Shown in pieces: positions 6,400 through 27,435 of a DNA stretch of 32,000 nucleotides. The number at the start of each line of letters is the position of its first letter. Position 1 is the stretch's first letter. Under the pieces are notes generated by a model. It saw only the letters and a program-made list of their open reading frames with translations. It was not told where the DNA came from and did not search any database. Source of the stretch: Candidatus Nitrosocosmicus sp. FF01. Its GTDB lineage: Archaea > Thermoproteota > Nitrososphaeria > Nitrososphaerales > Nitrososphaeraceae. The DNA is taken from NCBI RefSeq assembly GCF_047711275.1, contig NZ_JBLNIG010000002.1:515929-547928 (forward strand). The letters are read 5' to 3'. The position numbers were made by a program, and so were the translations under genes.

Positions 6400-6400
6400 T

Positions 6401-6789: not shown

Positions 6790-7458
<669 letters not shown>

Positions 7459-7500
7459 TCATTGTTGTTAGACAATAGTGAGGTAATTTCTAATACCTCA

Positions 7501-8823: not shown

Positions 8824-8842
8824 CTTTTTTTGGAATAATTAC

Positions 8843-8852
8843 TTATATAAAA
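8843..8852 (-). promoter_or_regulatory. TATA-box-like element for glyA
   Basis: The minus strand reads TTTTATATAA, followed by about 19 nt and then the GTG start at 8823. This is leaderless-type spacing. Confidence 0.4.
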
Positions 8853-8914
8853 TATCGTAATCTTGATAAATAGTAATATTTTAGGTATAATTTTTTAGGT
8901 AATTATAACAATAA

Positions 8915-8922
8915 TTTTATAC
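8915..8922 (+). promoter_or_regulatory. TATA-box-like element for the small zinc-ribbon gene
   Basis: TTTTATAC lies 20 nt before the ATG at 8943. Confidence 0.4.
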
Positions 8923-8942
8923 TACATGTATTTTATCTACTC

Positions 8943-9107
8943 ATGCAGAAGGTTAATCAGATGGAAGGATATTGTGTAAAGTGTAAAGCAAAAAGAGAAA
9001 TGAAAGATGAAAAACAGGTAACAATGAAAAACGGAAGACCTGCCACCCAGGGTATATGTAGCGTATGTAATACGAAAATGTTCAAAATAGGAGGATCTAA
9101 AAAATAA
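8943..9107 (+). CDS. Small zinc-ribbon protein (DUF5679-like), 54 aa, or 48 aa if it starts at ATG 8961
   Basis: Hand translation: (MQKVNQ)MEGYCVKCKAKREMKDEKQVTMKNGRPATQGICSVCNTKMFKIGGSKK*. The CxxC...CxxC spacing and the YCVKCK...MKNGR...G.C..C.TKMF+I pattern match a widespread small protein family. It falls below the ORF-track size cutoff. The track instead lists two low-complexity minus-strand ORFs here. Confidence 0.65.
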   Translation: MQKVNQMEGYCVKCKAKREMKDEKQVTMKNGRPATQGICSVCNTKMFKIGGSKK

Positions 9108-9365
9108 TAAAAAATAATGAACATTTTGATAATTCCGATGATTAAAGTCGATATTTTTATTATTTTGAGCATATCTGAGTGTCTGCAAACTCCAACCTAG
9201 GCTAATTAATTCGTATCAATAATGATAATGCAATCACAGTACAGTCACTATATATACAGTTGTTAAAATTTTTATATTTGATAACTTTTATTTTTTGTAC
9301 AGTAATGATGACAACCTTCTAGCTCTGAACTGTTATATATTAATCAGTAATGCTTTATAGAATTC

Positions 9366-9887
9366 ATGAAGGGCACGTCCACAACAGATTTTGATAGGCC
9401 GGATTGGGATACGTACTTTATGATACAAGCCTTTTTAGCCAAACTTAGAGCAAATTGCCTTACAAGGCAAATCGGAGCAGTTATAGTTAAGAATTATAGG
9501 CAAATATCAACCGGTTACAATGGTACTCCTTCGGGCTTTACTAATTGCTATGAAGGTGGGTGTAAAAGATGTTCTGATAGGGTAAAAGGCGCAATTAAAT
9601 CGGGAGAAGGTCTTGAGCGATGTATATGTGTGCATGCTGAGGCTAACGCAATAATGCAGTGTGTTATGTTTGGAAATGCCGGCAGCACTAAAAATGCCAC
9701 TCTGTATTCTACTCTTTCACCATGCATAGAATGTAGTAAGATGGCGATTACAGTTGGAATTGACAGAGTTGTTATATTGACTCGGTATGCCGAGGACGGG
9801 ACTGCTATACTAAAGCAGGCTGGGGTAAAGATCTTGGAAATGGATCCGTCAAAATTAGAATCTTGGATTGAAAAAATGTTCAAATAA
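9366..9887 (+). CDS. dCMP (deoxycytidylate) deaminase, ComEB-type
   Basis: 173 aa. Zinc-binding deaminase motifs HAEANAI and PCIECSKM. The N-terminal WDTYFM block is typical of dCMP deaminases. Confidence 0.85.
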   Translation: MKGTSTTDFDRPDWDTYFMIQAFLAKLRANCLTRQIGAVIVKNYRQISTGYNGTPSGFTNCYEGGCKRCSDRVKGAIKSGEGLERCICVHAEANAIMQCVMFGNAGSTKNATLYSTLSPCIECSKMAITVGIDRVVILTRYAEDGTAILKQAGVKILEMDPSKLESWIEKMFK

Positions 9888-9962
9888 TTGTGAAATGGTA
9901 CTTTTACTACAAATCAGTGAATAATTTGCATTAACTGTTTAAAACTCTAAACTAATAAGAAC

Positions 9963-9984
9963 AAAACAAAAAAAAATAAAAAAA
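9963..9984 (-). terminator. Poly-T terminator of amoC copy 1
   Basis: The minus strand reads TTTTTTTATTTTTTTTTGTTTT directly after the TAA stop. Oligo-T tracts are the usual archaeal termination signal. Confidence 0.55.
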
Positions 9985-10548
9985 TTAAGGAACTGATCTG
10001 CTGTAGAGTTTTCCTTCTAGTGCTAGTTTGTACATTTCTGCTACGTATGGGTTTCTTGCAGGCGTTTCCGCACCCAGCTCCACCAAACGTGCATATACCC
10101 TAACTACATAGGCCAAAGCACCCATAAATGCTACTACTACACCCATGTTAAACATCCAGTGGTTTGGTACAGAGAATATCTCTTCAACAAACCAAAAGTG
10201 CCACATTTCATTGATACCTATAGTAAACATGGTTGCCAAGTAACCGATAATGGTGATCTTTAGACCAGTATTCATTGAATTGTTTGGTCCTCGAAGTACT
10301 GGAACTCTTCTGTCATACATTGCAACAAATCCCCAACCTAATGGAAGTGCAATAAAGTGACTGTACAACCACCAGTGAGCTGGTGTAAATGCACTATCTC
10401 TAATTGCTGTTTGGTGTAGTGATCCATCAACAAAGTTATCTACTTCTACTGATGCAGCAATAGATCCTAGCATGATGACCATCAGATAGATCTTTTTTAG
10501 TCTTTGAATTTCAACTTCTTTTGGAATTAATGCTGGCATTTGGGCCAT
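9985..10548 (-). CDS. amoC: Ammonia monooxygenase subunit C (archaeal), copy 1
   Basis: 187 aa. MAQMPALIPKEVEIQRLKK..., VEVDNFVDGSLHQT.IRDSAFTPAHWWLYSHF, VPNHWMFN and ENPYVAEM are characteristic archaeal AmoC blocks. Several predicted TM helices. Confidence 0.93.
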   Translation of the reverse strand: MAQMPALIPKEVEIQRLKKIYLMVIMLGSIAASVEVDNFVDGSLHQTAIRDSAFTPAHWWLYSHFIALPLGWGFVAMYDRRVPVLRGPNNSMNTGLKITIIGYLATMFTIGINEMWHFWFVEEIFSVPNHWMFNMGVVVAFMGALAYVVRVYARLVELGAETPARNPYVAEMYKLALEGKLYSRSVP

Positions 10549-10579
10549 AATCTTTCTTCAACATATCTTCCAGATTTAG

Positions 10580-10587
10580 GTATATAA
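10580..10587 (-). promoter_or_regulatory. TATA-box-like element of amoC copy 1
   Basis: The minus strand reads TTATATAC, 31 nt upstream of the ATG. It lies inside the duplicated segment. Confidence 0.4.
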
Positions 10588-10773
10588 GATATTAAGTATA
10601 AAAGTTACAAATGCAAATAGGACAATATATAGAAAATACTATTCTTATATGTCAATAGTATAGAAATTATATAAAAGTGAACAAATAATGGATATTGTGA
10701 AGTAAAGCATAGCTGATTAGCGGGAGTGATAAAAAGGTCCAAACGATAAATAATTAGTTATCTCTAAATTGAG

Positions 10774-11472
10774 ATGTTGGATCCATTCATCTTTTTTGAT
10801 CTGGGACAAACTTTGATTGATGAATGGAGTTTTGTAGCCTATTTTGATAACCTGTTGTTTAAGACTCTCAACGACTATGGTGCAAGAGTAGATCGGAGAA
10901 ACTATACTGCACTGAGAAATAATTTAATTCTGGATAGAAAGTTTGGAACTTCTGGATTTTTGGAACTGGTCCCTCTAATATCTAAACTAATTCTCCCCCG
11001 TGGATATGAATCAACGATTAACGATGTTTTGATGGAAGATTTACTACGTAACAAGAGAGAGTTAATCAAATTGTTCGACGAAGTTCCTAAAATAATTCCG
11101 CAGTTGTCCAAAAAATATTCCCTGGGAATTATTAGCAACAATTCATCAGGTTCTGCAAACCTGCTACGAAGACATGATCTCGATAAGTATTTTGATGTGG
11201 TGTGCTTGTCTGAAAATATCGGTTTTAAGAAACCGGATCATAACATATTTCAAAAGGCACTGGCTGATGCAAATTTAAGTATCAATAAATGCATAATGGT
11301 CGGAGATAGATTAGACATAGATATAATGCCAGCTAATGAGCTTGGGATGAAGACTATTCGTACTCTGAATTCTTTGTACAAAATTCAAAGAGCTAGAAAT
11401 GAGAAGGAAACACCGCTATTTACAATAAATTCTTTAACAGAATTACCTGAGATATTGTTACGCATTGGTTAG
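10774..11472 (+). CDS. HAD-superfamily hydrolase (subfamily IA-like) with a non-canonical motif I
   Basis: 232 aa. FFDLGQTLID (motif I with Gly where the second Asp is expected), ISNNS (motif II), KPDHNIF, VGDRLDIDI (motif IV). Confidence 0.7.
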   Translation: MLDPFIFFDLGQTLIDEWSFVAYFDNLLFKTLNDYGARVDRRNYTALRNNLILDRKFGTSGFLELVPLISKLILPRGYESTINDVLMEDLLRNKRELIKLFDEVPKIIPQLSKKYSLGIISNNSSGSANLLRRHDLDKYFDVVCLSENIGFKKPDHNIFQKALADANLSINKCIMVGDRLDIDIMPANELGMKTIRTLNSLYKIQRARNEKETPLFTINSLTELPEILLRIG

Positions 11473-11906
11473 GCCGACTCTATCAATTTCGATATGTTTT
11501 TCCAGTGGTCATCAAGCTCGTCTGCTGGGATATTTTTCTTGTCAAATAATGAATGAATTGACCTATTTCTTTCTGATTCAGAAGCTGGAATAATGTGTAC
11601 ATGGAAATGGGGAATCTCTTGCCCTGCGTCCCTCCCATTATGAATGCTTATTAGTGATGAACTACCATCCATCGCCTTTTCAATTTTATCAGTCAAAAAA
11701 TGTAGTGCACTAAAAATATCACTATTTTCGCCAATGCTTAGATCCTGAATTTTAGGTCTGTGAGTTTTAGAAATTAAAAGCGAATGACCTTTTCTTAAGG
11801 GAAACGCATCTAAAATCGCAATTGAATGTTCAGTTTCATATATTTTTCTGGTCTTTATGTTACCTTTTATGATTTCACAAAATACACACTTGTTTGGACT
11901 CATCAT
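11469..11906 (-). CDS. HIT-family (histidine triad) nucleotide hydrolase/transferase
   Basis: 145 aa. C.FC.I near the N-terminus and the histidine triad HFHVHIIP. Confidence 0.85.
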   Translation of the reverse strand: MMSPNKCVFCEIIKGNIKTRKIYETEHSIAILDAFPLRKGHSLLISKTHRPKIQDLSIGENSDIFSALHFLTDKIEKAMDGSSSLISIHNGRDAGQEIPHFHVHIIPASESERNRSIHSLFDKKNIPADELDDHWKNISKLIESA

Positions 11907-11996
11907 ATTTATTCCTAAATGTGCTCATAATAATAAAAGATTACAATATATTCTGATTCACCAAGATTAATAAAATTGAACTAAAAAGGATATGAC

Positions 11997-12557
11997 ATGA
12001 ATAAAACATCAATTCATGAGAGGCCTTTAGTTACAATTCTGATGAACGAAAATATTGCCAAGAGTTTAAGCGATCCTCATAGGCTAAAAATTTTGGATTT
12101 TCTTTACCATAGAAATCTGTCGACTAGAAATCTGTTTGATTTATTAAAAAAAGCTAAATACGATATAGCCATGACTACCTTGAGACATCATATATTAATA
12201 CTGAAAAAAAATGGTTTGATAAGTATCCAAAGAAAAGAAGAGGTTAAAGGGAAATTGGTAAAGTACTACAAATCCAATGTAAAGATGTTAGTATATGAAA
12301 ATTTTCCATTTGTGACCTTTGCACGAGATAGTAAGGAAATTGTCAACTTGTTATATCCAAAACTCTACAAAGTTATAAAAAAAATTATCATAAATGAAAA
12401 GGATTTGATCTCCACTATTTTATCTGATGTTAAATCAAGATGCAAAATATGTAGAACTTATCACTACGCGGAATTTTTACTTTTTATGGTTTTTAACATG
12501 GTTATAGCAAAAGTATTGCGAAAATTACTCAAGACAGTTTTGTCCCCAACGGTATAG
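11997..12557 (+). CDS. ArsR-family winged-helix transcriptional regulator with a C-terminal extension
   Basis: 186 aa. LSDPHRLKILDFL....ST..L.......TLRHHILILKKNGLI...KEEVKGKLVKYY is an ArsR-type HTH plus wing. A hydrophobic C-terminal segment is present. Confidence 0.6.
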   Translation: MNKTSIHERPLVTILMNENIAKSLSDPHRLKILDFLYHRNLSTRNLFDLLKKAKYDIAMTTLRHHILILKKNGLISIQRKEEVKGKLVKYYKSNVKMLVYENFPFVTFARDSKEIVNLLYPKLYKVIKKIIINEKDLISTILSDVKSRCKICRTYHYAEFLLFMVFNMVIAKVLRKLLKTVLSPTV

Positions 12558-12700
12558 TTTTTGGTTTCGATTATAGCGGTTGTTATAAAGCAAATAACGG
12601 CACTAATAATGCTATTTCAAATCAGGCAATCCCAGATCCTCTTTTTTGAGATTGCAAACATTATTTTAAAATACTAAAAAGTTCTTAAATTATCTAACTC

Positions 12701-13699
12701 ATGTCCCCTTTTCTTTTACTTAAGAATGTAAATAAGATCTTCCCTATTCATAGAAATTTGTTTAGTTTTTTTTCAAAGTCCAATCATATTCGAAAAGTAA
12801 TAGATAACGTATCATTGGAGGTGGGCGCAGGCGAAGTAATGGTTCTAGCTGGCGAATCTGGATCCGGAAAAACAACTTTGGCCAAGCTCATAATGGGATC
12901 ACTAACACCAGACAGCGGCACGATCTACTTTGAAGGAAATGATGTTCAAGTTTTGAAAAAGAAAAAAAAGTTTTATTCATTGATACAAATGATCCATCAG
13001 GATCCTTATAGTTCGCTTAACCCGCATCTCAAGGTTAAAGATATAGTTATGGAGCCACTAAAAATACATGATAGAGGATCCAGTAGTAAGGAAGAAAAAA
13101 TAGAGCAAGTACGTATCGCTTTACGTAGAACTAAACTTGAACCAGTAGATGAATTTTTAGATAAATATCCGACAATGCTCTCAGGGGGACAAAGACAGCG
13201 TGTTTCTATTGCACGGGCTATTGTAAAAATTCCCAAGTTAATTATCGCTGACGAACCAGTTTCCATGCTGGATATTTCTGTTAGAGCCGAAATCTTATCA
13301 TTGCTTAATGATTTGAGGAAATCTCTGAATATTTCTATTATATATATTACTCATGATCTCGCTACTTCTAGATTTATCGGTGACAAGATTGGAATAATGT
13401 TTGCAGGAAATATTGTGGAATATGGGGATATCGATGAGGTATTACACAACCCACTTCATCCATATACTTGGATGTTACTTGATGCCGTTACATTTGCTTC
13501 TACTGAATCCAAATTCTACAAGACTTTCTCTGGCTCGAATACTTCTGCTGCTGCTTTGCCATTAAAAGGGTGCAAATTTTACAACCGTTGCAAATTATCT
13601 TTTGCTGATTGCACCCAAGATATCCAACAATTTAATATCAATAAGAAGCATGCTGTTTCATGTTTTTATTACAAAAATGTCGTTACCAACCTAAACTAG
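12701..13699 (+). CDS. ABC transporter ATP-binding protein, oligopeptide/dipeptide (DppF/OppF) type
   Basis: 332 aa. Walker A GESGSGKTT, signature LSGGQRQR, Walker B LIIADEPVSMLD, H-loop ITHDL. Opp/Dpp-type C-terminal extension (HPYT, GCKFYNRC...C). Confidence 0.85.
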   Translation: MSPFLLLKNVNKIFPIHRNLFSFFSKSNHIRKVIDNVSLEVGAGEVMVLAGESGSGKTTLAKLIMGSLTPDSGTIYFEGNDVQVLKKKKKFYSLIQMIHQDPYSSLNPHLKVKDIVMEPLKIHDRGSSSKEEKIEQVRIALRRTKLEPVDEFLDKYPTMLSGGQRQRVSIARAIVKIPKLIIADEPVSMLDISVRAEILSLLNDLRKSLNISIIYITHDLATSRFIGDKIGIMFAGNIVEYGDIDEVLHNPLHPYTWMLLDAVTFASTESKFYKTFSGSNTSAAALPLKGCKFYNRCKLSFADCTQDIQQFNINKKHAVSCFYYKNVVTNLN

Positions 13700-13752
13700 A
13701 ATAATCTTAAAATTTCGATTCTCTTGCCAAGAATACTTTTAGAGTTATCAAA

Positions 13753-16700
13753 TCACTGTGCTTCCACTTTTACCTTGCTAGGATGATTATATTTTACCAC
13801 TTGAGATATTCCGTTCTTTGGATAAACTCCAAAGATTAGATCTGATTTAGCAACTGTAGAATCTTTAAGGGTTACCATTATTATCTGGTTATTTATGGAT
13901 CTTAGCATTAATATTTTTGATAACCTGTCAGTATTTTGAGCGTCGAGGTGAGCATCTACTTCATCCATCAGATAAAAAGGGGATGGTTTAAGGGACTGCA
14001 AGGCTAGGAGAAATACTATAGCTGCCATTGTCTTCTCACCACCAGATAAGGAGGTAGATTCTCTTGCAGGTTTGTTGGGAAACTGTACCATCAACAGGAT
14101 TCCTCCCGAAAAAATATTTTCCGGATTTTCTAGTTCTAACCAAGCGTTACCACCTGTAATATCAGAAAAAGTCTTTCTTATATCTTCATCAACCTTTCTA
14201 AAAGCATCTATGAATTGATTTTCTTTTTCCTTTGCTATCTCCTCAATGAAACCCACGATTGAATTTCTCTCTTCCTCAAGTTGATTTCTTTTGTCGGATA
14301 ATCCCCTATATCCTTCTATTATTTCCAAATATGTTTCGTCTGCCCTAAAGTTAACTTGATCTTTGATACCCTCAAATTCTTCTTTTAATTCACGATAAAG
14401 TGTATCCACATCAAAACTTTCCAGCAATGTTTTGTGACCCAATCTTGCAAGTTCATTACTCTGATTTACAAATTGATTTTCTAAATCCATGATATCTTTT
14501 CTCAGAAATCCTAGGTCTTTATCTAATTGATTTAATTCTCGACTAGTACTTTTCTCTTGCTCACTCAGTCTTTTGTTTATATTTTCATACTCTTGCAATT
14601 TTGTATACGTTAAACTAGATGATTGTATTATTTCATCCTCTTTTTCTCTCAAAATTTTCATTTCTGACTCAATTCTTTGGCTTTCTAATATGGCCTTATC
14701 CAAGAAATTTTTCTTCTCAATCTTCTCGACTTGTAGGCTTTCATATGCCTCTTTGGCTCGGTTGTATAAACGTGAATTACTTTCCAAATTGTTTGCAGTC
14801 ATGGATTCTGTCAGCTTTAGCTGATTTAGTTTGATGTTAAGAGATTCCATTTCTGCAACAATTGAATTTTTCTCCTCTTCTATCTTTTCTATACCTTTAT
14901 GATCTATTCTTTCTTCTATTTCTCTTATTAGTAAATTGAGCCTTTCAATGGTATTTATTATGATTGTGAATCTCTTTTCAAAATATTTTAAATCAAGGAA
15001 AAGCTTGTCAAGAAATGAACTGTGTTCTGCATTTAAAGTATAAAGTCGATTTAAATTCTTTTGATTTGTAGATATTACATTCTCTGCTTCCTTTATTTTC
15101 TCTATGATATTGGATCTTTCGTGATCGTAATTATCAAGTTCTTTTGATTTGGCGATTCTTAATTCATTGAGATCATTTAGTTCTTTAACTCTTAGCTTGG
15201 TCAATTCCCTTAACTTTTCTATATTTATTTTTAGATTTTCGATAGAATCAGAAAGTAACAAGTCCTTTGTAATATCTGCAATCTTTGAACCATAATCGAA
15301 TTGCATCAGAGATAAATCCGGGAAAAAGATTTCTCCAGTTATCGATACTGCTTTAAATCCTTTTTTAGATAGTATATAGGCGGTCAATGGATTCTTTGTG
15401 AGTATTATATTTCCAAACAAGAATTCTGACAAGTATGGTATCTTGCTAGATACAAAGTCTGATAGAACCCCTAGAACTGATGGATTATCTTCTACGTTTC
15501 TTATTCTATCTACTACAAGCAATTCCTGTGGAATGATTTTTAAAAAATTTATTCCCTTGTTTTTGGAAAATTCAGCAAGTGTGATCATACTTTTGATATC
15601 TTTGACTACTATTGATTTCATCCATTCGTTTCCTGATGCTATTACGGCCTTTTGATATTTTTCGTTCCACGTTAGTAAATTAAATACGTATCCTATTACT
15701 CCTAGATTCTCAAAATCTTTTGATAAAGTTGCAATGGCATAGTCTTCTGTCAAACTATTCTTTGCAAGTTTGATCTTTTCATCATATTTTATGATTACTT
15801 TATCTGCATTTTCTATAACCGACTTTGATGTATTTGTCTCTTTGTTCATTTTTAGAAATTTTTCCTCAATTTTTTCTTTTTCACCCCTAAATGCATTTAA
15901 TTCCTTGTCCATGAGGGTAATTTTTGATCTTGAATTACTTACTATCCTTTCAATTTCTTTATTTCTTGCAAGTATTTGAAATATTTGTGAATCGTTCTCT
16001 TTTATCTTTGATGAATCGTTCTTAATGTTCTCTTCTAATCTGGCAATGTTTATTTCGATTTTGCCCTTTATAGGTATCAATTTGTTTATTCTATTTATCA
16101 AGAAATTCTTTTGATTTATATCATCCGAATTTGATTTCTTTATTTCATTAAATTGCTTATTTTTCGCCTCCAGTGAATTTCTCAGATTAATTTGAGTCTC
16201 TTCTAAAGAACGGATTTCTGGTTCGATCTTTTTGAGTTGGAGCTGAAGTTCATTAATTTTCTTCTGATGTGTTTCCTGTTCAATCTTATTTGATTTTTCA
16301 TTCTGTACAATCTGATTAAAATGATATTCTGCTTCCTTAAGAGCGGATCTTGTCTTTTGATATTCGAAGTTTGCCGCCGATAGTTTCTTTTCGTGCATCA
16401 TTTTCTCATTGGTAGAGGCGTTTGCTTGAATAAGAAACTGTTCCTTATCTTTATTTGCATTTTCAATTTGTGAGCTTAATTCATCCAATTTTTTTGAAAT
16501 TTCTATATTTTTCTCCTCCTTGTTTTTTTGCTCTTCTTTAAACTCTGCAATTTTATTTGTTAGGTTATTGAGACTTCCAGATAATCTAATAGCCTTTAAC
16601 CTGTTAATTTCTGATTCTATTTGCGAATATCTATGTTGATAGTTTCTTTCCTCTTCTAACTCATCAATTCTGTTTCTAACCTCGCCCATTTTGGCCAAAG

Positions 16701-17283
16701 CTATTTCTAGCCTTCTGTCTGATTCTTCCAGTTGCTTATAGGCTTGCTCTTTTTTTTCATCAAAATACGATAGCCCGATGATATCTTCTATGATTTTTCT
16801 CCTATCTTCTGAATTGAGTTCGGAAATCCTTGTGATCATTCCCTGCTGAACAATGTTAAGTTTATTGGGCGAAGCTACTACTATTTCCATTAGTTCTAGA
16901 ATGTTATTTCTTGACACCCTTTTCTTATTCAGATAATATTGACTTTCACCTGTATTGCCTCCAGACATTTCTCTTGTAATGGTAACAAGATTGTCATCTA
17001 TTGGGATCCCTCTATCCTCATTGTCAAATGTTACACTTACTTTTACCACTTTGTGAGGGTTATCACTAGCATCACTATCATGAAATAATGACTGAAACTT
17101 GTCTACTCGAAGAGCCTTTGGGCTATTCTCTCCTAGAGCGAATATAATGGCATCAAGGATATTGCTTTTTCCAGACCCATTTGGACCGGTCACTGCTATT
17201 AATCCCTTCTGAAAATTTAAAGAAATATTCTTTGAACCAAATGATTTAAATCCAAAAACATCTAATTTTTTAATATAAACCAA
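13753..17283 (-). CDS. smc: Chromosome segregation protein SMC
   Basis: 1176 aa. N-terminal Walker A GPNGSGKSN, long coiled-coil arms, a central hinge region, C-terminal LSGGEKT and Walker B YLMDEVDAHLD. Forced TTG start (MVYIKKLDVFGFKSF). Confidence 0.92.
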   Translation of the reverse strand: MVYIKKLDVFGFKSFGSKNISLNFQKGLIAVTGPNGSGKSNILDAIIFALGENSPKALRVDKFQSLFHDSDASDNPHKVVKVSVTFDNEDRGIPIDDNLVTITREMSGGNTGESQYYLNKKRVSRNNILELMEIVVASPNKLNIVQQGMITRISELNSEDRRKIIEDIIGLSYFDEKKEQAYKQLEESDRRLEIALAKMGEVRNRIDELEEERNYQHRYSQIESEINRLKAIRLSGSLNNLTNKIAEFKEEQKNKEEKNIEISKKLDELSSQIENANKDKEQFLIQANASTNEKMMHEKKLSAANFEYQKTRSALKEAEYHFNQIVQNEKSNKIEQETHQKKINELQLQLKKIEPEIRSLEETQINLRNSLEAKNKQFNEIKKSNSDDINQKNFLINRINKLIPIKGKIEINIARLEENIKNDSSKIKENDSQIFQILARNKEIERIVSNSRSKITLMDKELNAFRGEKEKIEEKFLKMNKETNTSKSVIENADKVIIKYDEKIKLAKNSLTEDYAIATLSKDFENLGVIGYVFNLLTWNEKYQKAVIASGNEWMKSIVVKDIKSMITLAEFSKNKGINFLKIIPQELLVVDRIRNVEDNPSVLGVLSDFVSSKIPYLSEFLFGNIILTKNPLTAYILSKKGFKAVSITGEIFFPDLSLMQFDYGSKIADITKDLLLSDSIENLKINIEKLRELTKLRVKELNDLNELRIAKSKELDNYDHERSNIIEKIKEAENVISTNQKNLNRLYTLNAEHSSFLDKLFLDLKYFEKRFTIIINTIERLNLLIREIEERIDHKGIEKIEEEKNSIVAEMESLNIKLNQLKLTESMTANNLESNSRLYNRAKEAYESLQVEKIEKKNFLDKAILESQRIESEMKILREKEDEIIQSSSLTYTKLQEYENINKRLSEQEKSTSRELNQLDKDLGFLRKDIMDLENQFVNQSNELARLGHKTLLESFDVDTLYRELKEEFEGIKDQVNFRADETYLEIIEGYRGLSDKRNQLEEERNSIVGFIEEIAKEKENQFIDAFRKVDEDIRKTFSDITGGNAWLELENPENIFSGGILLMVQFPNKPARESTSLSGGEKTMAAIVFLLALQSLKPSPFYLMDEVDAHLDAQNTDRLSKILMLRSINNQIIMVTLKDSTVAKSDLIFGVYPKNGISQVVKYNHPSKVKVEAQ

Positions 17284-17340
17284 AATTATATTGTATTCCT
17301 ATGGTCCTTTTCTTTATTATTTCTTTTTGTTTTTTAACTA

Positions 17341-19740
17341 CTAATTATAGCTGTTACTGTTATTTTGGTGTAAATTTTGAATGGTAATTACTTTGACCCG
17401 CCTTAAATTGTTAGGTTTACTTGAACCATCTGAATTGGGCAAAAATGTATCACTTGACTCAAGTATCTTGTAGTCGTGAGCTGGTATGAGGGAAATTATT
17501 TTTTCAAAGTCTACATTATCGTCTACAACAATCTGAATAGTCCCGCCATGATTTAATTTTGAGCTATAAGAATGAAGCAAGTTCTTCAAAATTCTTTCCT
17601 TATTCACAGTTTTTCTGGATTTATCATAAAAGATAGTAACTATGAAATTATCCACAGATTTATCTTTTATAAAAGGAAGGATATTTTCGCTGTTACCGGG
17701 CAATATTTCCAAGTTGTTGATTTGAATACCGGATAGTTTTGCTTGTGTATTGATTATTTCTATTTTGTCTTTTACAATACCGATGAAATATTCGTTCCTT
17801 TTCTTTAGAGCATTATTTATTAAAAAATCACAACTACTTGTCTTTACGTCTATGTTTATTTTTTCATACTTTGTTTTGGCATCTAAAATTAGATTGTTTA
17901 TTTTATTGGCTGGGTTACCTTCATGAAAAAATTGGTACACATTATCCCATTTTTGCCTAAATACGTCTGGAAAATTCTTTCTTGTTATGATTTCTTTAAA
18001 TAGAGAACCTTCTGAAAATAATGATAAAAATCTATCAGTTCTAGAAACTGCCTCAACTATTGGAAAATCTAATTCTTCATATAATTTAACTACTCTGTTC
18101 CAGGCTAGGAGAGGGTCTGAACTTAAATATGTTACCGATAAATCTGAAAGTGATAGAATTTCTGCGATCAAATTGATTTTTTCTACCGAAATCTCTTCAC
18201 TATCTATTTCCTTTAGCAACTGATTAAAACTGTTATAAGCCTTCTGGTTAAATGGATAATCTGTTCTCCAGATTAGAGCTTCAACTATTTTGCTTTCGAC
18301 ATTGACTTTTCTGTCCGCAAGCATTTCTGGATGCGTAGTTGCGAACTCCTGCGGAGGCAATAATGAAGACTCGTATTTTCTGAAAAATCTGATGAATTCA
18401 TCATTTGTCAACATAAAATATGCATCATGAATTCTTGTTCTCTTTAATTCCGCTATGGTGCTTGAAACTGTAGGTACTCTTGAATATCTTAATTCATAAT
18501 GAGATGTGCCAATTACAGGATCGTAGTCATGCAGCAAAGCAGCCACCACCATTATTTCAAAGTCTTTACTAGTGATGGTATATCCATGTATTTCCTTTGG
18601 TAACATATTGAGGCTCATATACGTGACCTCTAGTGAATGGTGTAAGTTGTGATATTCACTTGAGCCTTCCCCCAAACCCAGCTTTTCATACTCTTTTTTT
18701 AGGAACTCTGTCAACGTATGCAGTTTATCAAGGGACATTTCATTGATTCCCACTGCTTTTGATTTTATTAGAATTGATTCGATTAAGTAGTCTAAAGTTA
18801 AACCCGACAAATTTTCATTTGTGTATTGAATTTGTCTCTTTTTAGCACCAGGGAGGATATCTTTTGCTTTGTTATATACTATTCGTATTGGGAGACTTTT
18901 GTTTAAATAAGTATAGAAAGATGTGAGTATATTTCCTGTATTCTTAAGTACGGGTTTTTCTTTAAATAGGATTTCGTCAATTATTTGGGGAATGTTCTTA
19001 TTAACGTTAGATATTTTATTCGTTATTGTATTTATTTCCACCTGAGAGAACATATTAAATCTCTTGTATTCTGTATTTAATACCAGCCACTGTGGTATCA
19101 TGACTTTAAAAACTGTGATTGAATTATCGTCTACTAATGATCTTGTGTTCCTAGACATCGACCCTATATTATTGGTATATCGTATTATTATGATAACGTT
19201 CCCTTTTCCTTTATTAAATGAGAGGCTGGCATCCTTTACTACTTGCAATTTTACATTCTTGTTTATTTTTTGTAACTCTAAGAGCATCTTCCAATATTTA
19301 CCCTTATCGAGCCAATGCGGTACTTCGTTTTCTCTGTCCCAGAAATCTACCAAACGGTGATATGCATAACCTTCTTCTGGCTGGTTTGTTTCTGGATTCA
19401 AGGTTTCGCAATCATATTCTCCGATGAGCGGGTCCAATTTACGACTAGCGTGCCATGTATCTCTGACTAATTTAGTACCATACTCAAACTGTGTGTGCGC
19501 CATCAGACCCCATACACACCCCAATGCACTGGTAATCGAAAATAACAAATTTATCCAATCCTTGTTCCAATCAAATTTCTCATTCAAAAAAAGGTCAGAC
19601 AATAGTGGGATGGCAAATATACCTGTGCTAATCATAGAGGTAAAAGATAAAGCAATAAAAAAATATGCAGCATAATCGTAATGAGATAGATTAAATGTCC
19701 ATTTTTTAGACTTTATGGTAGAATTACCTTCTACAGTCAA
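17341..19740 (-). CDS. Membrane-anchored HD-domain protein of unknown function
   Basis: 799 aa. Two N-terminal hydrophobic helices (AAYFFIALSFTSMISTGIFAIPLL and WINLLFSITSALGCVWGLMA). A central HD phosphohydrolase-like signature (YHNLHHSLEV ... VVAALLHDYDP). The C-terminal ~170 aa faintly resemble the tail of a Rossmann methyltransferase (LNHGGTIQIVVDD). Forced TTG start right after an in-frame stop. Confidence 0.6.
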   Translation of the reverse strand: MTVEGNSTIKSKKWTFNLSHYDYAAYFFIALSFTSMISTGIFAIPLLSDLFLNEKFDWNKDWINLLFSITSALGCVWGLMAHTQFEYGTKLVRDTWHASRKLDPLIGEYDCETLNPETNQPEEGYAYHRLVDFWDRENEVPHWLDKGKYWKMLLELQKINKNVKLQVVKDASLSFNKGKGNVIIIIRYTNNIGSMSRNTRSLVDDNSITVFKVMIPQWLVLNTEYKRFNMFSQVEINTITNKISNVNKNIPQIIDEILFKEKPVLKNTGNILTSFYTYLNKSLPIRIVYNKAKDILPGAKKRQIQYTNENLSGLTLDYLIESILIKSKAVGINEMSLDKLHTLTEFLKKEYEKLGLGEGSSEYHNLHHSLEVTYMSLNMLPKEIHGYTITSKDFEIMVVAALLHDYDPVIGTSHYELRYSRVPTVSSTIAELKRTRIHDAYFMLTNDEFIRFFRKYESSLLPPQEFATTHPEMLADRKVNVESKIVEALIWRTDYPFNQKAYNSFNQLLKEIDSEEISVEKINLIAEILSLSDLSVTYLSSDPLLAWNRVVKLYEELDFPIVEAVSRTDRFLSLFSEGSLFKEIITRKNFPDVFRQKWDNVYQFFHEGNPANKINNLILDAKTKYEKINIDVKTSSCDFLINNALKKRNEYFIGIVKDKIEIINTQAKLSGIQINNLEILPGNSENILPFIKDKSVDNFIVTIFYDKSRKTVNKERILKNLLHSYSSKLNHGGTIQIVVDDNVDFEKIISLIPAHDYKILESSDTFLPNSDGSSKPNNLRRVKVITIQNLHQNNSNSYN

Positions 19741-19956
19741 TTAACTCCACACCCAATTGGAAATCGGGCACCGTCTAATTTTCCATTTATTGATATTTAA
19801 TTTAATTTATCCCTCTTTCTATTTTATGAATGTTATTTTTAAGATCTCTGCTTTAATGCTAAGAATAAAGTGACTAGCTGTTATTATCATTATTAGGTCA
19901 AGGTCAAAAGCTACATCATCAATATGATAGGAAACAAAGACCAGATGTATAGGGAA

Positions 19957-21312
19957 CTAGTAAACATCCATCTTTCTTGCCTTATTTTCAACATTGTTTA
20001 TAATGTTCTTTGAAGCTGAAAGCTGAGTTTGAGGATTAAAGATAACTTTTAGTTCCTCTTTGCTAATATTATCAGTGATTTCAGGTTCACTTATTAGTGC
20101 ATCATAAAAATGCTTGTGATTTTCTGCTGCATTAAAGGCTATGGATTGGATACTCCTATATGCCTTAACCCTTGGAAGACCCTTTAATATCAATCCTTGA
20201 AGAACAAACTCTGCAAATATTTGACCGTTTGTTAATTCAATATTCTTTTGAATTTTGTCTGTATTTATTTTCAATCCCGATATGATTTTTACCATCGTAC
20301 CTATCATATCGTCGATTAAAATAGATGCCATTGGAATTATGAAACGCTCGTTAGCAGAATTTGATAGATCCCTTTCATGCCATAATGCAATATTTTCTAA
20401 AGAAACATTTAGATTTGATCTAATAATTCTGGCCAAAGAAGAAATCCTTTCACTCTTTATAGGGTTTCTTTTTACTGGTACTGCACTACTCCCCATTTGT
20501 CCTTTTTTAAATGATTCTTGAACCTCATCAATTTCAGTTCGTTGTAAATTTCTAATTTCAATAGCCATTTTATCAAGGGTGGAAGATACAAGCGTAATTA
20601 TGAACATCATCTCCGCATACCTTTCTCTTTGAATTACTTGAGTAGCGGCCTCTGTAGGAAATAGGTCCAATTCATTTGCGACGACTTTTTGAACTTCGAG
20701 CGCTTTCTCTCTCATCAATGAACCTGTTCCAACTACCCCCAAGGTCTTACACAACAAGAATCTTTTTTTACCTTCGTTAATTCTCGTCAAATCATCTAGT
20801 AACTCGTTTGCCCAAATAGCAAATTTGAGTCCAAATGCAGTGATGCTGGCATGTTGTCCATGTGTTCTACCCACTGAAGGCAAATCCTGATATTTTCTCG
20901 CTTTATCCAGCAATTCTTTTATCAATTGTTGTAATTTTGTTTCAATAATTCTAAATACATCTCGCATCTGCATGGAAGTGCTGCTATCTACTACATCATT
21001 ACTTGTTAATCCGTAATGAACCCACGGTTTAGAGCTTTCCGAGCATAATTCGCTGATTGCTTCAACTATTGCCGCTATATCGTGATCACTTACACTTTCT
21101 AATTCTTTAACTCTTTTTACTGTAATTCTATTCGACAAAACTACATTTTTTATATCGGCTGCTGCTGCTTTTGGAATCATGTTTAGTTTAGCTTGTGCGT
21201 TGGCCACTTCAGCTTCGAAGGTCAATTCATAATGTAATTTTGTTTCTTCCTCAAAAATAGCCTTCATTTCTTTTGTTCCATATCTTCCACTATCAATAGG
21301 TAAAATCGGCAT
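19957..21312 (-). CDS. purB: Adenylosuccinate lyase
   Basis: 451 aa. Fumarate-lyase family signature GSSAVPVKRNP. The length and the blocks TSNDV and GRTHGQHA are typical of PurB. Confidence 0.9.
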   Translation of the reverse strand: MPILPIDSGRYGTKEMKAIFEEETKLHYELTFEAEVANAQAKLNMIPKAAAADIKNVVLSNRITVKRVKELESVSDHDIAAIVEAISELCSESSKPWVHYGLTSNDVVDSSTSMQMRDVFRIIETKLQQLIKELLDKARKYQDLPSVGRTHGQHASITAFGLKFAIWANELLDDLTRINEGKKRFLLCKTLGVVGTGSLMREKALEVQKVVANELDLFPTEAATQVIQRERYAEMMFIITLVSSTLDKMAIEIRNLQRTEIDEVQESFKKGQMGSSAVPVKRNPIKSERISSLARIIRSNLNVSLENIALWHERDLSNSANERFIIPMASILIDDMIGTMVKIISGLKINTDKIQKNIELTNGQIFAEFVLQGLILKGLPRVKAYRSIQSIAFNAAENHKHFYDALISEPEITDNISKEELKVIFNPQTQLSASKNIINNVENKARKMDVY

Positions 21313-21400
21313 CAGTCTAGAATCAAATATGAATTATCTAATTTATTATTTAGGATGATTAATATTTGCCAAAATTCGATTATTTATCTTAAAAGGTATA

Positions 21401-22879
21401 ATGTCTGGTTCATTAGTAACAAAAAATGGTAAACATGTAGTTAACAAAATTTCAGATAATCAGTTTCAGATAGAGAGGGATAAATCGAGAGGAATGAATG
21501 TTCCAGTCACAGTATTCGCAAATGATCTATTGATTTCCAAAATGACGTTAGATAGAACACTCGATCAGGCGGTCAATGTCACAACTCTGCCTGGCGTCAA
21601 AAAGCATATGGTTGTACTTCCTGATGGACATGAGGGCTACGGCTTTCCAGTTGGCGGAGTAGCTGCATCTGATTTCGAGGAAGGGATAATTAGCCCCGGT
21701 GGAGTCGGCTATGATATCAATTGTGGAGTTAGATTGATTCGAACTAATTTACTGGAATCTGATATCCATTCAAAACTCAAACACTTGGTGGATTCTCTAT
21801 TTTCATCTATTCCAACTGGTGTGGGAAGTGAAGGGGCTATTAAGCTGACCAACGCGGAACTAGATGATTTGCTTGTTGATGGAGCAAAGTGGTCTGTGGA
21901 ACATGGTTACGGTATGGATAGTGATCTGGAATCATGTGAAGAGGGCGGAAAGATGAATGGCGCAGACCCCGTTAACATTTCGGCCAATGCAAGGAAAAGA
22001 GGCTCGATGCAATTAGGCAGCCTCGGTTCGGGGAATCACTTTCTTGAGATCCAAAAGGTAGACAAGATACTTGATAAGGAAGCAGCAAGTGCCATGGGTA
22101 TTTCACGGGAAGGAGAGATACAGATCCTAATACATTGTGGTTCTCGTGGATTCGGACATCAAGTTTGTTCAGATTATCTTAGGTTATCAGAACAAGCCAT
22201 GAAAAAATATGATTTAAATGTAATAGACAGGGAGTTGGCTTGTGTACCCAATATTTCGACAGAGGGAGAAAGTTACAGAAAATCTATGTTCTCTGCATTG
22301 AATTTTGCATGGGCAAATAGACAAATGCTTACTCACTGGACGAGGATGACATTTCAAAAGGTTCTAAATCTACGAGAAGAGGATCTGGAAATGAAGCTAG
22401 TATATGATGTGTCTCATAACATTGCAAAGGTTGAACATCATAAAATTGATGGTGAAGGTTCTCGTGACTTGGTAGTACATAGAAAAGGTGCCACGCGTGC
22501 ATTCCCATATGGAATGGAACAACTTCCTTCAAGGTTTCGGTCTATCGGTCAACCTGTGATTATACCAGGATCGATGGGTACAGCAAGCTGGGTTCTCTTA
22601 GGTTCTCCAAAATCTATGGATCTTAGCTTTGGATCCACGGCACATGGCGCAGGAAGAACTATGTCAAGATCAGAGGCAAAAAGAACCCATACACTAGAAA
22701 GTGTAAAGAAAAAATTAGAGTCAAGAGGAATATATGTTAGATCTTTGACCAAAAATGGACTAATTGAAGAATCACCGGATGCATACAAGGATGTAGACAT
22801 GGTTGCGGATGTATCACACAACGTTGGGATCGCGACTAAAGTCGTTAGACTTGTCCCTCTGGGAGTTATTAAAGGTTAA
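21401..22879 (+). CDS. rtcB: RNA-splicing ligase RtcB
   Basis: 492 aa. GGVGYDINCGVR, GSGNHFLE, HCGSRGFGHQ, PGSMG and HGAGR are all hallmark RtcB motifs. Confidence 0.93.
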   Translation: MSGSLVTKNGKHVVNKISDNQFQIERDKSRGMNVPVTVFANDLLISKMTLDRTLDQAVNVTTLPGVKKHMVVLPDGHEGYGFPVGGVAASDFEEGIISPGGVGYDINCGVRLIRTNLLESDIHSKLKHLVDSLFSSIPTGVGSEGAIKLTNAELDDLLVDGAKWSVEHGYGMDSDLESCEEGGKMNGADPVNISANARKRGSMQLGSLGSGNHFLEIQKVDKILDKEAASAMGISREGEIQILIHCGSRGFGHQVCSDYLRLSEQAMKKYDLNVIDRELACVPNISTEGESYRKSMFSALNFAWANRQMLTHWTRMTFQKVLNLREEDLEMKLVYDVSHNIAKVEHHKIDGEGSRDLVVHRKGATRAFPYGMEQLPSRFRSIGQPVIIPGSMGTASWVLLGSPKSMDLSFGSTAHGAGRTMSRSEAKRTHTLESVKKKLESRGIYVRSLTKNGLIEESPDAYKDVDMVADVSHNVGIATKVVRLVPLGVIKG

Positions 22880-22904
22880 ATTGGACGCAGGTAAGAATTC
22901 AGGC

Positions 22905-23363
22905 ATGGATGATCCAGATCTTGAATTAATTAAAAAACGAAAGATGAGGAAATTACAGGAACAATTGGCATTCAGAGAAAGGCAGGAGCAAGAGAAGGCG
23001 AAGGAGAAGGACAAGAATAATTTGGAACTCCAAAATCAAATAAATAAACAAAAATCTAACGAAATTGATTCCGAAAGGAACTTTTTGCTGCGCCACATGT
23101 ATGACAGAGGGGATGAGGTTCTAAAACTTGCAGAACAACAATACCCATTCCAAACTAAGATGATAATAAAGAGGTTAAATGAACTAATTCGGTTTGGAGA
23201 AATCCCTGGAATATCTGGTGGTGATATGCTTAGTGTTTATAGATCACTTGGTCTAAATATCAGGGTTGATACCCATATTTCTATATCAGACCATGGCAAA
23301 ACAATAAGTTTTTCGGATAAACTAAAACAATCAACAGCTTCAGAACTGGATGAATCGTCCTAA
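22905..23363 (+). CDS. PDCD5/TFAR19-like DNA-binding protein (dsDNA_bind family), tentative
   Basis: 152 aa from ATG 22905. The N-terminus MDDPDLELIKKRKMRKLQEQ, a charged linker and a helical core (YPFQTKMIIKRLNELIRFGEI.G.ISG) are collinear with archaeal PDCD5-like proteins such as MTH1615, as I recall them. The tracked start at 22803 would overlap rtcB by 77 nt. Confidence 0.5.
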   Translation: MDDPDLELIKKRKMRKLQEQLAFRERQEQEKAKEKDKNNLELQNQINKQKSNEIDSERNFLLRHMYDRGDEVLKLAEQQYPFQTKMIIKRLNELIRFGEIPGISGGDMLSVYRSLGLNIRVDTHISISDHGKTISFSDKLKQSTASELDESS

Positions 23364-23499
23364 GCTAAGTAAAGTCAATAGGGCTTGCTAGAAGTTTCTT
23401 GCCATCATGCTGGCATCCATTTTATATAAACTTTATGGAAAATACTTACACTTTGTTACTATTTTGATTATCTTTTTATGATTAAATTCTACTATAATT

Positions 23500-23521
23500 A
23501 AAACAAAAAAAAATAAAAAAA
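23500..23521 (-). terminator. Poly-T terminator of amoC copy 2
   Basis: Identical T-rich tract to copy 1, directly after the stop codon. Confidence 0.55.
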
Positions 23522-24085
23522 TTAAGGAACTGATCTGCTGTAGAGTTTTCCTTCTAGTGCTAGTTTGTACATTTCTGCTACGTATGGGTTTCTTGCAGGC
23601 GTTTCCGCACCCAGCTCCACCAAACGTGCATATACCCTAACTACATAGGCCAAAGCACCCATAAATGCTACTACTACACCCATGTTAAACATCCAGTGGT
23701 TTGGTACAGAGAATATCTCTTCAACAAACCAAAAGTGCCACATTTCATTGATACCTATAGTAAACATGGTTGCCAAGTAACCGATAATGGTGATCTTTAG
23801 ACCAGTATTCATTGAATTGTTTGGTCCTCGTAGTACTGGAACTCTTCTGTCATACATTGCAACAAATCCCCAACCTAATGGAAGTGCAATAAAGTGACTG
23901 TACAACCACCAGTGAGCTGGTGTAAATGCACTATCTCTAATTGCTGTTTGGTGTAGTGATCCATCAACAAAGTTATCTACTTCTACTGATGCAGCAATAG
24001 ATCCTAGCATGATGACCATCAGATAGATCTTTTTTAGCCTTTGAATTTCAACTTCTTTTGGAATTAATGCTGGCATTTGGGCCAT
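23522..24085 (-). CDS. amoC: Ammonia monooxygenase subunit C (archaeal), copy 2
   Basis: The 187-aa product is identical to copy 1. The nucleotide sequence differs at two synonymous sites. Confidence 0.93.
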   Translation of the reverse strand: MAQMPALIPKEVEIQRLKKIYLMVIMLGSIAASVEVDNFVDGSLHQTAIRDSAFTPAHWWLYSHFIALPLGWGFVAMYDRRVPVLRGPNNSMNTGLKITIIGYLATMFTIGINEMWHFWFVEEIFSVPNHWMFNMGVVVAFMGALAYVVRVYARLVELGAETPARNPYVAEMYKLALEGKLYSRSVP

Positions 24086-24116
24086 AATCTTTCTTCAACA
24101 TATCTTCCAGATTTAG

Positions 24117-24124
24117 GTATATAA
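24117..24124 (-). promoter_or_regulatory. TATA-box-like element of amoC copy 2
   Basis: Same element and spacing as copy 1, within the repeat. Confidence 0.4.
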
Positions 24125-24281
24125 GATATTAAGTATAAAAGTTACAAATGCAAATAGGACAATATATAGAAAATACTATTCTTATATGTCAATAGTATAG
24201 AAATTATATAAAAGTGAACAAATAATGGATATTGTGAAGTAAAGCATAGCTGATTAGCGGGAGTGATAACCGAACATTTAA

Positions 24282-25187
24282 CTAAGAAATTATAGGCTCC
24301 ACCTTTTGAACCGTTAAGGCATGATTATCGGTGTAAATGTTTGAAATAATTTCTGTCTTGTATACCTGGATATCTGATATGTTTGTGCTATTGCCTTCTT
24401 GTAAATCTAACTTATTCTTGATTAGGTTGACAGGATTTATTATTTCATCAGAGTCTATTTTAAAAATAGCGGTAAGATTATCCATCATTTTTCCCTCAGC
24501 GGAGGGTATCGAGAAATCTGTTTTTAGATACAACGCTTCTTTGTTTAAATTATCCAATGTATTTACCGTGTGCAACACGTCTACATTGACCAAATTACCA
24601 ATTTCTGACGCATTGATTATCGTATTTCCAATCTGATTGTTTAAAAAATTATTTACCAGTAACCCGTCATTGATACTGATCTCTATTTTTACAATCCCTT
24701 CTGCAAAATTGTTTGAAATATTGTTGGTAGTGTTGTTAGCAGTAGCGGAATCTGGACTTGTTTGAGAAAATGGAAATATTTTTGCACAATTAATATTTAC
24801 AATACTTTCTGAAGGGACATTAAGAATATTGAAATTACTCTTATATTGTTGATTTACCGCAATCGCTTTCCAAATTATGGTGATTGGAAAATCCTTTTTG
24901 TTAAAAATAGTAATATCTGAATCATACTTTCCGGGCCTTAACGGTCCACTATCGTCATCGATTGAACCACAATTGAATCTAGCATAATAGTTCACTGTCA
25001 ACTCATTTTGCGAAAAATTTGGTTTTGAATTAGTAGTATTAGTGTTGGTTGTAATGGCTGTGGTAGTCTGGCCTAAAACATTTTTGACCGACAAGAATCC
25101 ACTTTCTCCTCCTACTCCTCCTCCTCCAAAAATGATGACTTGAGTAACTAGAATAGCTAATATGGTATAGAGTTTATAGCGAACCAT
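24282..25187 (-). CDS. Secreted or membrane-anchored hypothetical protein (Asn/Thr-rich)
   Basis: 301 aa. N-terminal hydrophobic signal or anchor (YTILAILVTQVIIF) followed by a Gly run, a Thr/Asn-rich linker and a Cys-containing beta-rich body. A TATA-like AAAATTATAT lies about 23 nt upstream of the ATG. Confidence 0.5.
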   Translation of the reverse strand: MVRYKLYTILAILVTQVIIFGGGGVGGESGFLSVKNVLGQTTTAITTNTNTTNSKPNFSQNELTVNYYARFNCGSIDDDSGPLRPGKYDSDITIFNKKDFPITIIWKAIAVNQQYKSNFNILNVPSESIVNINCAKIFPFSQTSPDSATANNTTNNISNNFAEGIVKIEISINDGLLVNNFLNNQIGNTIINASEIGNLVNVDVLHTVNTLDNLNKEALYLKTDFSIPSAEGKMMDNLTAIFKIDSDEIINPVNLIKNKLDLQEGNSTNISDIQVYKTEIISNIYTDNHALTVQKVEPIIS

Positions 25188-25266
25188 TCAACAAACGATG
25201 TTCTTTTCGTCGATATAATTTTTATCATAAATTTGAATAATAATTATATAGTCAAATATCACTAGT

Positions 25267-26328: not shown

Positions 26329-26512
26329 CAACCATACAGACACTATTCTCCCTCTCTCTCTTATAACGGATGGAAGAGAATGTAACGACTAAGGCCAGTA
26401 ATTTTCCTATTTTTATTTCTATCAAATCACAATGTCCAGGTTACAGCGCATAACAAAGGATGAATATATTACAAATAACATTTTATATCATGGATTTATT
26501 TAAATACTAAAT

Positions 26513-27361: not shown

Positions 27362-27403
27362 AATATAGTTACTATGTAAAGTATTACTATAGTAGTCCAA
27401 TTA

Positions 27404-27411
27404 TTTAATAT
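27404..27411 (+). promoter_or_regulatory. TATA-box-like element for radA
   Basis: TTTAATAT lies 24 nt before the ATG at 27436. This supports the long form of RadA. Confidence 0.4.
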
Positions 27412-27435
27412 ATCTGAAAGTTGTTATGGTAGAAT

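Follow-up and report, generated by a model that had tools for sequence, protein, structure and literature searches.

The 32,000-nt stretch of DNA analysed here comes from Candidatus Nitrosocosmicus sp. FF01, one of the soil-dwelling ammonia-oxidising archaea of the Nitrososphaeraceae (contig NZ_JBLNIG010000002.1, positions 515,929 to 547,928; hereafter the window). It carries two copies of amoC, which encodes subunit C of a Cu membrane monooxygenase. The copies are nearly indistinguishable in coding and non-coding sequence alike, and they enclose a block of single-copy housekeeping genes. Why are they so similar? A sequence-only reading of the window had offered two answers: either the duplication is very recent, or the copies undergo gene conversion. 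Comparison with related genomes separates them: recent duplication fails because the two loci occupy the same positions in relatives, whereas conversion gains support from the contrast between 0-2 differing nucleotides within genomes and 45-75 between species. We consider it very probable that the duplication at the two loci is old and that the copies, non-coding DNA included, are kept near-identical by recurrent gene conversion. The evidence for this concerted evolution comes from the relatives and not from the window.

A 770-bp direct repeat carries a complete amoC unit

Base-by-base self-comparison of the window at an offset of 13537 showed that positions 9963-10732 equal 23500-24269, a match of 770 bp in direct orientation that is unbroken apart from two mismatches (10294 A versus 23831 T and 10501 T versus 24038 C). 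Both are synonymous third-position changes within the coding sequence (CDS), AGA/AGG (Arg) at codon 16 and CTT/CTA (Leu) at codon 85, and copies A and B translate into one identical 187-aa protein. The 184 nt upstream of the gene and the 22-nt oligo-T tract downstream are identical between the copies. Sequence likeness ends at once past both edges of the repeat, where local alignments of the outer 200 nt scored no better than shuffled sequence; the boundaries are therefore sharp. In all these respects (coordinates and bases, synonymous changes, identical flanks and abrupt edges) the sequence-only reading proved accurate. Its further claim of stronger conservation in the flanks than in the CDS did not hold: when there are just two differences, chance alone puts both of them in the 564-bp CDS with a probability of (564/770)^2 = 0.54, and the comparison thus carries no signal in the window taken alone. 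A repeat-finding program reported a 300-nt family starting at 9924, implying an extension of about 40 nt (9924-9962, ~60% similarity); this was rejected as compositional, as gapped alignment revealed no residual homology. The features of the repeat are listed in Table 1.

The Pfam AmoC family (PF04896) matches residues 4-157 of the encoded protein (E 6e-14, 52.4 bits against a cut-off of 26.7). NCBIfam bacterial equivalog models match it weakly (~50-55 bits against cut-offs of 280-319), which fits an archaeal AmoC lacking two helices of the bacterial protein (PMC10030591). The protein is 100% identical to AmoC of Candidatus Nitrosocosmicus agrestis SS and 95-99% identical to 569 confirmed matches in Nitrososphaeraceae genomes, from which 80 loci were kept as the comparative set; in these relatives 20 kb of DNA around each amoC copy was compared. 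The genes of the window include no amoA, amoB or amoX. An Rfam scan of the window found no RNA genes and a tRNA scan of it found no tRNA, hence no tRNA-type attachment site at the repeats. A sigma-70 promoter scan of the window, applying a bacterial model to an archaeal host, gave matches at the level of shuffled sequence. G+C content is 30-42% per 1-kb window, mostly 30-38%.

Table 1. Coordinates of the amoC repeats, their parts and the enclosed interval (positions in the window)
Feature	Position	Strand	Remarks
Repeat copy A	9963..10732	-	complete amoC unit (distal motif array, promoter, CDS, oligo-T tail); between the dCMP deaminase gene and the HAD hydrolase gene; same neighbours in other genomes
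Repeat copy B	23500..24269	-	770-bp amoC unit; between the small open reading frame (ORF) after rtcB and the 301-aa ORF
amoC CDS, copy A	9985..10548	-	187 aa; AGA at codon 16 and CTT at codon 85, both private synonymous alleles
amoC CDS, copy B	23522..24085	-	187 aa; protein identical to copy A; AGG/CTA alleles, also in related strains L009 and L100
Oligo-T tract, copy A	9963..9984	-	TTTTTTTATTTTTTTTTGTTTT; directly after the stop codon; putative archaeal oligo-T terminator
Oligo-T tract, copy B	23500..23521	-	directly after the stop codon; same sequence as the copy A tract
Putative TATA box TTATATA, copy A	10581..10587	-	about -39 to -33 from the ATG
Putative TATA box TTATATA, copy B	24118..24124	-	same element as copy A
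Distal motif array, copy A	10695..10732	-	TTATCACTCCCGCTAATCAGCTATGCTTTAC...; 5' edge of copy A; window version of the TGMTWATCA array
Distal motif array, copy B	24232..24269	-	5' edge of copy B
Interval between the repeats	10733..23499		12,767 bp; single-copy housekeeping genes; bounded by copies A and B

The two amoC loci occupy the same positions in diverged relatives

Each copy has its own set of neighbours, HAD and dCMP deaminase-SHMT around amoC at locus A, and the 301-aa ORF and o186-RtcB around amoC at locus B. Both loci lie on one contig, in direct orientation and with the same neighbours, in at least three Nitrosocosmicus-like genomes besides the window: N. agrestis SS (L004/L005; 128-kb contig, A-B spacing 13,930 bp), CP166992.1 (L008/L007; 3.08-Mb record, spacing 13,837 bp, with a third amoC copy elsewhere) and the metagenome-assembled genome (MAG) MFD01916.bin.2.53 (L020/L021; spacing 13,690 bp). 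A single locus A or B was found in at least eight further loci (L010, L017, L012, L089, L044, L032, L039 and L059), with neighbour proteins 54-93% identical to those of the window. Flanking DNA is 74-82% identical to the window in the species with both loci, and in more distant Nitrososphaeraceae MAGs, which show one locus or the other, SMC and the 799-aa protein encoded in the interval are 54-59% identical to their window counterparts (SMC ~58%). No relative was found to lack the second copy at the orthologous site; both sites were occupied wherever the locus was recovered. This positional orthology across diverged genomes indicates that the duplication is old and, judged by synteny, that it had taken place before several Nitrosocosmicus species, and also remoter lineages of Nitrososphaeraceae, went separate ways.

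Taken alone, the window would be compatible with a very recent segmental duplication, in which the amoC unit was copied shortly before sampling and near-identity reflects lack of time: the 770 bp contain no more than two differences and have sharp boundaries. The relatives render this explanation barely credible, as amoC fills both sites, between the same neighbours and at the same spacing, in species whose flanks have diverged to the extent given above and whose amoC genes have a synonymous divergence (dS) of about 0.5. That every lineage should have acquired the unit independently at these two intergenic positions is not credible.

The copies are homogenised within each genome

Within genomes, the amoC CDSs differ at 2 positions in the window, 0 in N. 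agrestis, 0/0/0 among the three copies of CP166992.1, 0-1 in MFD01916, 0/0/0 in MFD09603.bin.1.314, 2 in MFD08416 and 1 in MFD05176. When locus A is compared with locus A and locus B with locus B across species, 45-75 of the 564 nt differ. Nei-Gojobori dS is accordingly 0-0.016 within genomes versus 0.50-0.75 between them, with a non-synonymous divergence (dN) of about 0. The non-coding DNA follows the same pattern: the upstream 171-186 nt match within each genome with 0-2 mismatches, yet across species the stretch between about -140 and -45 has diverged strongly, and megablast alignments reach no further than ~60 nt upstream of the ATG. Alignment of the relatives' amoC loci together with their flanks, the check suggested by the sequence-only reading, thus showed upstream DNA that is alike within genomes and diverged between species.

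Could purifying selection alone hold every position fixed, with no exchange between the copies? Constraint is evident, in that the AmoC protein is 100% identical across species whose amoC dS is ~0.5, and conservation extends to the TATA box and to the distal motif. However, the 45-75 substitutions in the CDS and a -140 to -45 region that can barely be aligned between species, alongside paralogues that are identical in each genome, leave this explanation scarcely tenable. Because synonymous and upstream sites that are free to differ between species nonetheless match within genomes, selection on sequence alone is insufficient. These results support concerted evolution as the cause of the within-genome near-identity, for which recurrent gene conversion would be the simplest mechanism.

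On this view the two repeats belong to a small amoC family scattered over the genome (three copies in relatives), and each unit would come with a distal control element, a TATA promoter, a CDS and an oligo-T tail of its own. Non-reciprocal homologous recombination between copies, presumably of the RadA type, would repeatedly overwrite one with another. With conversion tracts confined to shared homology, the homogenised block would end sharply. On the 5' side its limit would be an array of palindromes ~180 nt before the ATG, the farthest element that the species have in common. The AGG/CTA alleles of copy B are found in two near-identical strains, L009 and L100 (the contig of the latter runs from amoC into the locus-A flank), which indicates that the alleles of copy A, AGA/CTT, are recent and peculiar to the window. 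They may be recent mutations, or a recent import, still awaiting erasure. With one protein behind one promoter, under extreme constraint, specialised isoforms do not explain the copies in Nitrosocosmicus; a higher or more robust supply of a single AmoC protein appears to be the most economical reading of identical copies.

Several observations weigh against homogenisation by conversion. No conversion tract was seen directly, and the less homogeneous bins yielded no mosaic amoC copy with a clear tract boundary. The locus-A copy of MFD07386 differs from the other three of its bin by 28-31 nt that are evenly spread, and could be an escaped copy or the product of a mixed bin. Any third amoC copy of the source organism would lie outside the window. 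In N. viennensis the six amoC copies are non-identical and one dominates expression (PMC10030591), so multi-copy amoC is not always a matter of dosage. MAG bins may also mix strains, inflating or deflating within-genome differences; the key pairs (agrestis, CP166992.1, MFD01916 and MFD09603.bin.1.314) each lie on a single contig. The few within-genome amoC differences are scattered single sites, and in MFD09603.bin.1.404, where the two copies differ by 10 nt, nine of these fall in the last 13 nt and look like an indel.

An amoC-specific palindrome array coincides with the 5' boundary

In most genomes examined, the 5' edge of the within-genome identity block lies at about -172 to -186, where it coincides with the distal motif array, and beyond the array the neighbours differ at each amoC copy. 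Across Nitrososphaeraceae the array consists of three TGMTWATCA palindromes with a 13-bp period, starting about -180 to -186 upstream of amoC and lying ~140 bp upstream of the TATA box. Its consensus, derived from 54 distinct anchored upstream regions, is TtATCA-N4-TGaTaATCA-N4-tGaT.AtC, and a regular expression for two adjacent sites matches at the distal position of 43/81 amoC copies. The motif is closely tied to this gene: in 1.25 Mb of fetched Nitrososphaeraceae DNA (without amoA, amoB and amoX loci), matches on either strand are essentially all amoC-distal, and within the window the array occurs at the two repeats only. The sole outliers in the 1.25 Mb are at the starts of the short contigs L034 and L036; L034 has no plus-strand gene after the motif, which would fit another amoC copy lying just beyond the end of the contig. 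The array is probably a functional distal control site. Being constrained in every copy, it may anchor the outermost homology open to conversion, the DNA further out having decayed.

Between the array and TTATATA lies an A+T-rich spacer of ~100 nt that is poorly conserved among 20 aligned upstream regions. TTATATA itself is invariant in 20/20 of them, with ATC/ACT before it and semi-conserved sequence between it and the start codon; from archaeal promoter architecture it is probably a TATA box with a short leader. At the other end of the unit, a T-run directly follows the amoC stop codon in all relatives examined. Such a run is the usual archaeal termination signal, and a terminator scan of the window found no hairpin terminator. 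The 3' edge of identity is variable, lying 22 nt after the stop codon here, 219 nt after it in N. agrestis and further out, with indels, in CP166992.1. In L006, L007 and L008 (each at about 10565-10740), and also in L004/L005 and L044, the DNA just past the amoC stop codon contains short T-rich tandem repeats (GTTTT, GTTTTA), whose number differs between the amoC copies of CP166992.1. The window has no such extension, and its repeat therefore stops only 22 nt past the stop codon.

A common 5' boundary in all copies could alternatively mark a cassette mobilised by an integrase, virus or integrated element, which repeatedly re-inserts at preferred sites and is re-seeded from a master copy. Third amoC copies in CP166992.1 (L006) and GCA_007826885.1 (L003) do lie 4-7 kb from an archaeal phage-type integrase gene (PF16795), and a primase-like gene (Prim-Pol/D5_N) surrounded by numerous small ORFs is a further neighbour of the L003 copy. 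The positions concerned are 14174-15115 in L006 and 17286-18170 and 20323 onward in L003, and such surroundings may mark the edge of an integrated element. Furthermore, an integrated element of Nitrososphaera evergladensis encodes AmoC (PMC6563490) and marine thaumarchaeal viruses carry amoC, although the soil viruses of ammonia-oxidising archaea examined so far do not (PMC11849493). At the loci studied here, a search of the unit ends found no terminal inverted repeats, inspection of the flanks by eye found no target-site duplication or matching short direct repeats, and the window contains no integrase, transposase or other recombinase gene. Even between deeply diverged genomes, both loci have kept their places among housekeeping genes, and the variable 3' boundary is unlike that of a defined cassette. 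We therefore regard a mobile cassette as unlikely, and favour conversion between resident copies.

A published search in N. viennensis found no promoter motif common to all six amo genes (PMC10030591); the conserved distal palindrome array offers a concrete, testable handle on amoC regulation. A gene for a 186-aa helix-turn-helix (HTH) protein with weak similarity to ArsR/SmtB metalloregulators (window 11997-12557, plus strand) lies 1.3 kb from amoC copy A and keeps its position in most of the locus-A relatives examined (L001, L008, L018, L020, L032 and L044). As a speculation, this protein is a candidate amoC regulator. A broader model, which we hold only tentatively and think somewhat less probable than its negation, would make the amoC unit a self-contained regulatory module whose 5' limit is set by the array as the putative operator of a dedicated amoC regulator, perhaps the ArsR/SmtB-like protein. 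The dispersed units would be the main substrates of the homologous recombination that reshuffles Nitrososphaeraceae chromosomes, and copies flanking essential genes would be immune to loss.

Recombinant layouts break within the amoC unit

Indirect evidence for recombination between the loci comes from MFD09603.bin.1.314, whose 1.58-Mb contig CAVXKW010000005.1 carries two rearranged amoC loci 89 kb apart on the same strand. One of them (L038) reads 301-aa ORF, amoC, o83-SHMT and joins the outer flanks; the other (L035) reads HIT-HAD, amoC, o186-RtcB-PurB-799aa-SMC and joins the inner flanks. In the close relative MFD09603.bin.1.404 the corresponding locus L089 is an ordinary B locus. Homology between L035 and L089 starts exactly at -184 of amoC, and homology between L038 and L089 ends 37 nt past the stop codon, which places the exchange of flanks within the amoC unit. 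The two layouts are the junctions expected from A x B recombination, with one product a chromosome and the other an excised circle. Pfam annotation of the region surrounding the L035 breakpoint showed no recombinase.

The sequence-only reading had proposed that the repeats could delete or amplify the enclosed block. Exchange of flanks exactly at the repeat in MFD09603.bin.1.314 lends this indirect support. No amplified junction of the interval was seen among the loci compared, and the one layout resembling a deletion (L009, described below) is more likely an assembly shortcut. Pop-out between the direct repeats would remove SMC, PurB and RtcB and should be lethal, which may be why the loci persist. 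Inverted amoC pairs 3.8-7 kb apart were also observed in Nitrososphaeraceae MAGs, in L059 (3210 plus and 7979 minus, bracketing rtcB and o186), L015 (2893 minus and 10001 plus) and L055 (6234 minus and 10001 plus); these are further rearrangements with amoC at the breakpoints.

Short-read assemblies fail at the repeat

Short-read assemblies break or mis-join at the 0.77-kb amoC repeats. In short-read metagenome assemblies, contigs with the exact RtcB of the window are all ~12.7-13.1 kb long and correspond to the interval plus ~150 nt of amoC at each end, and contigs with its exact SHMT mostly end ~110 nt past the dCMP deaminase gene, near the repeat edge. The 88,971-bp contig L009 (JGI 3300036714, Ga0400557_00021; locus positions 2122-20548) joins the outer flanks of the window through one amoC and lacks the interval, with 99.8% identity to the window over 1-10732 and 97.7% over 23500-31997.

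Might the two-copy layout itself be an artefact, with a single amoC locus doubled by the assembler or the 12.8-kb interval misplaced? The repeat is longer than short reads, assemblies of near-identical strains break there, and the 89-kb contig L009 joins the outer flanks while omitting the interval. Nevertheless, two positions tell the copies apart, no two of their four flanks are alike, and the layout recurs in independent assemblies that include a 3.08-Mb single record and contigs of 0.2-1.6 Mb spanning several copies. Moreover, the stand-alone interval contigs enter amoC for ~150 nt at both ends, as a repeat-bounded interval predicts. An assembly artefact in the window itself is thus very unlikely.

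L009 is probably an assembler's loop bypass of the repeat. Reading it as a real deletion variant is not preferred, as the missing block has SMC, PurB and RtcB and short-read assemblers fail at the repeat, although deletion of the interval in a sub-population is formally conceivable. On the right side, 160/194 differences between L009 and the window fall at 30-32 kb, a local hypervariable patch of small hypothetical ORFs, and divergence elsewhere is ~0.2-0.5%. L009 shares its IMG dataset with a contig of the N. agrestis SS assembly, and the dataset appears to hold a second Nitrosocosmicus strain. In practice, the interval can be expected to turn up as an orphan ~13-kb contig in short-read assemblies of Nitrosocosmicus, and one public contig skips it.

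Relation to known systems

A classical example of dispersed duplicates homogenised by gene conversion is tufA/tufB of Salmonella. The multi-copy psbA genes of cyanobacteria are also listed among homogenised dispersed duplicates (PMC6053082). Like these, amoC is a highly expressed, constrained gene present in a few dispersed copies that are probably kept identical by recombination, with occasional rearrangements. Unlike them, the case described here is archaeal, and its homogenised block includes ~184 nt of upstream control DNA with a lineage-wide distal motif.

A close parallel is the amoCAB operon of betaproteobacterial Nitrosomonadales, for which (as for hao and cyc) concerted evolution with conserved synteny has been shown (PMC6053082); our literature search for amoC with gene conversion or concerted evolution returned only this bacterial study. 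In both systems the paralogues are near-identical within a genome and diverged between species, and conserved synteny places the duplication before speciation. The enzyme family is also the same, and gene conversion is proposed for both. The differences are that here the host is an archaeon and amoC alone is multiplied, and that in place of multi-kb operons there is a 0.77-kb monocistronic unit, repeated directly 13.5 kb apart around housekeeping genes. Nitrosomonas europaea likewise has a monocistronic amoC away from other amo genes, the singleton amoC3, which according to a paper citing Berube and Stahl is divergent, separately regulated and has a role in stress and recovery. The copies described here differ from amoC3 in sharing one protein and one promoter, so that the role of a specialised isoform is unavailable to them.

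Possession of several amoC copies is a well-documented trait of soil ammonia-oxidising archaea. Within Nitrosocosmicus, amoA and amoB are single-copy (PMC6776761, PMC8573960), Ca. N. franklandus C13 has three identical amoC copies (PMC6776761) and Ca. N. agrestis has three (PMC8573960). The window resembles these published cases in gene family, clade and the dispersal of copies unlinked to amoA/amoB. The literature attributes archaeal amoC copies to genus-level duplications (PMC10030591); by contrast, the synteny reported here indicates older duplications masked by homogenisation. If the copies are homogenised, gene trees in which amoC paralogues cluster by genus or species underestimate the age of duplication, and the identity of copies is uninformative on recency. 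Pangenome and core-genome calls may also become harder where amoC is multi-copy; one core genome published for Nitrosocosmicus includes amoA/B/X/Y/Z 'but not amoC'. That conversion can keep dispersed duplicates identical is textbook knowledge and already established for bacterial amo operons, so the conceptual gain is modest. The additions made here are dating by synteny, a recurring boundary with an amoC-specific palindrome array, and the recombinant layouts.

Genes of the enclosed interval

The interval encodes a HAD hydrolase, a HIT protein, the ArsR-like HTH protein, an ABC ATPase, SMC, a 799-aa TrmB-domain protein, PurB, RtcB and a small ORF, in agreement with the earlier statement that the repeats flank smc, purB and rtcB. 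In the 799-aa protein (window 17341-19740, minus strand) the TrmB-like methyltransferase domain is confined to residues ~626-770, and the N-terminal ~600 residues have no above-threshold family match.

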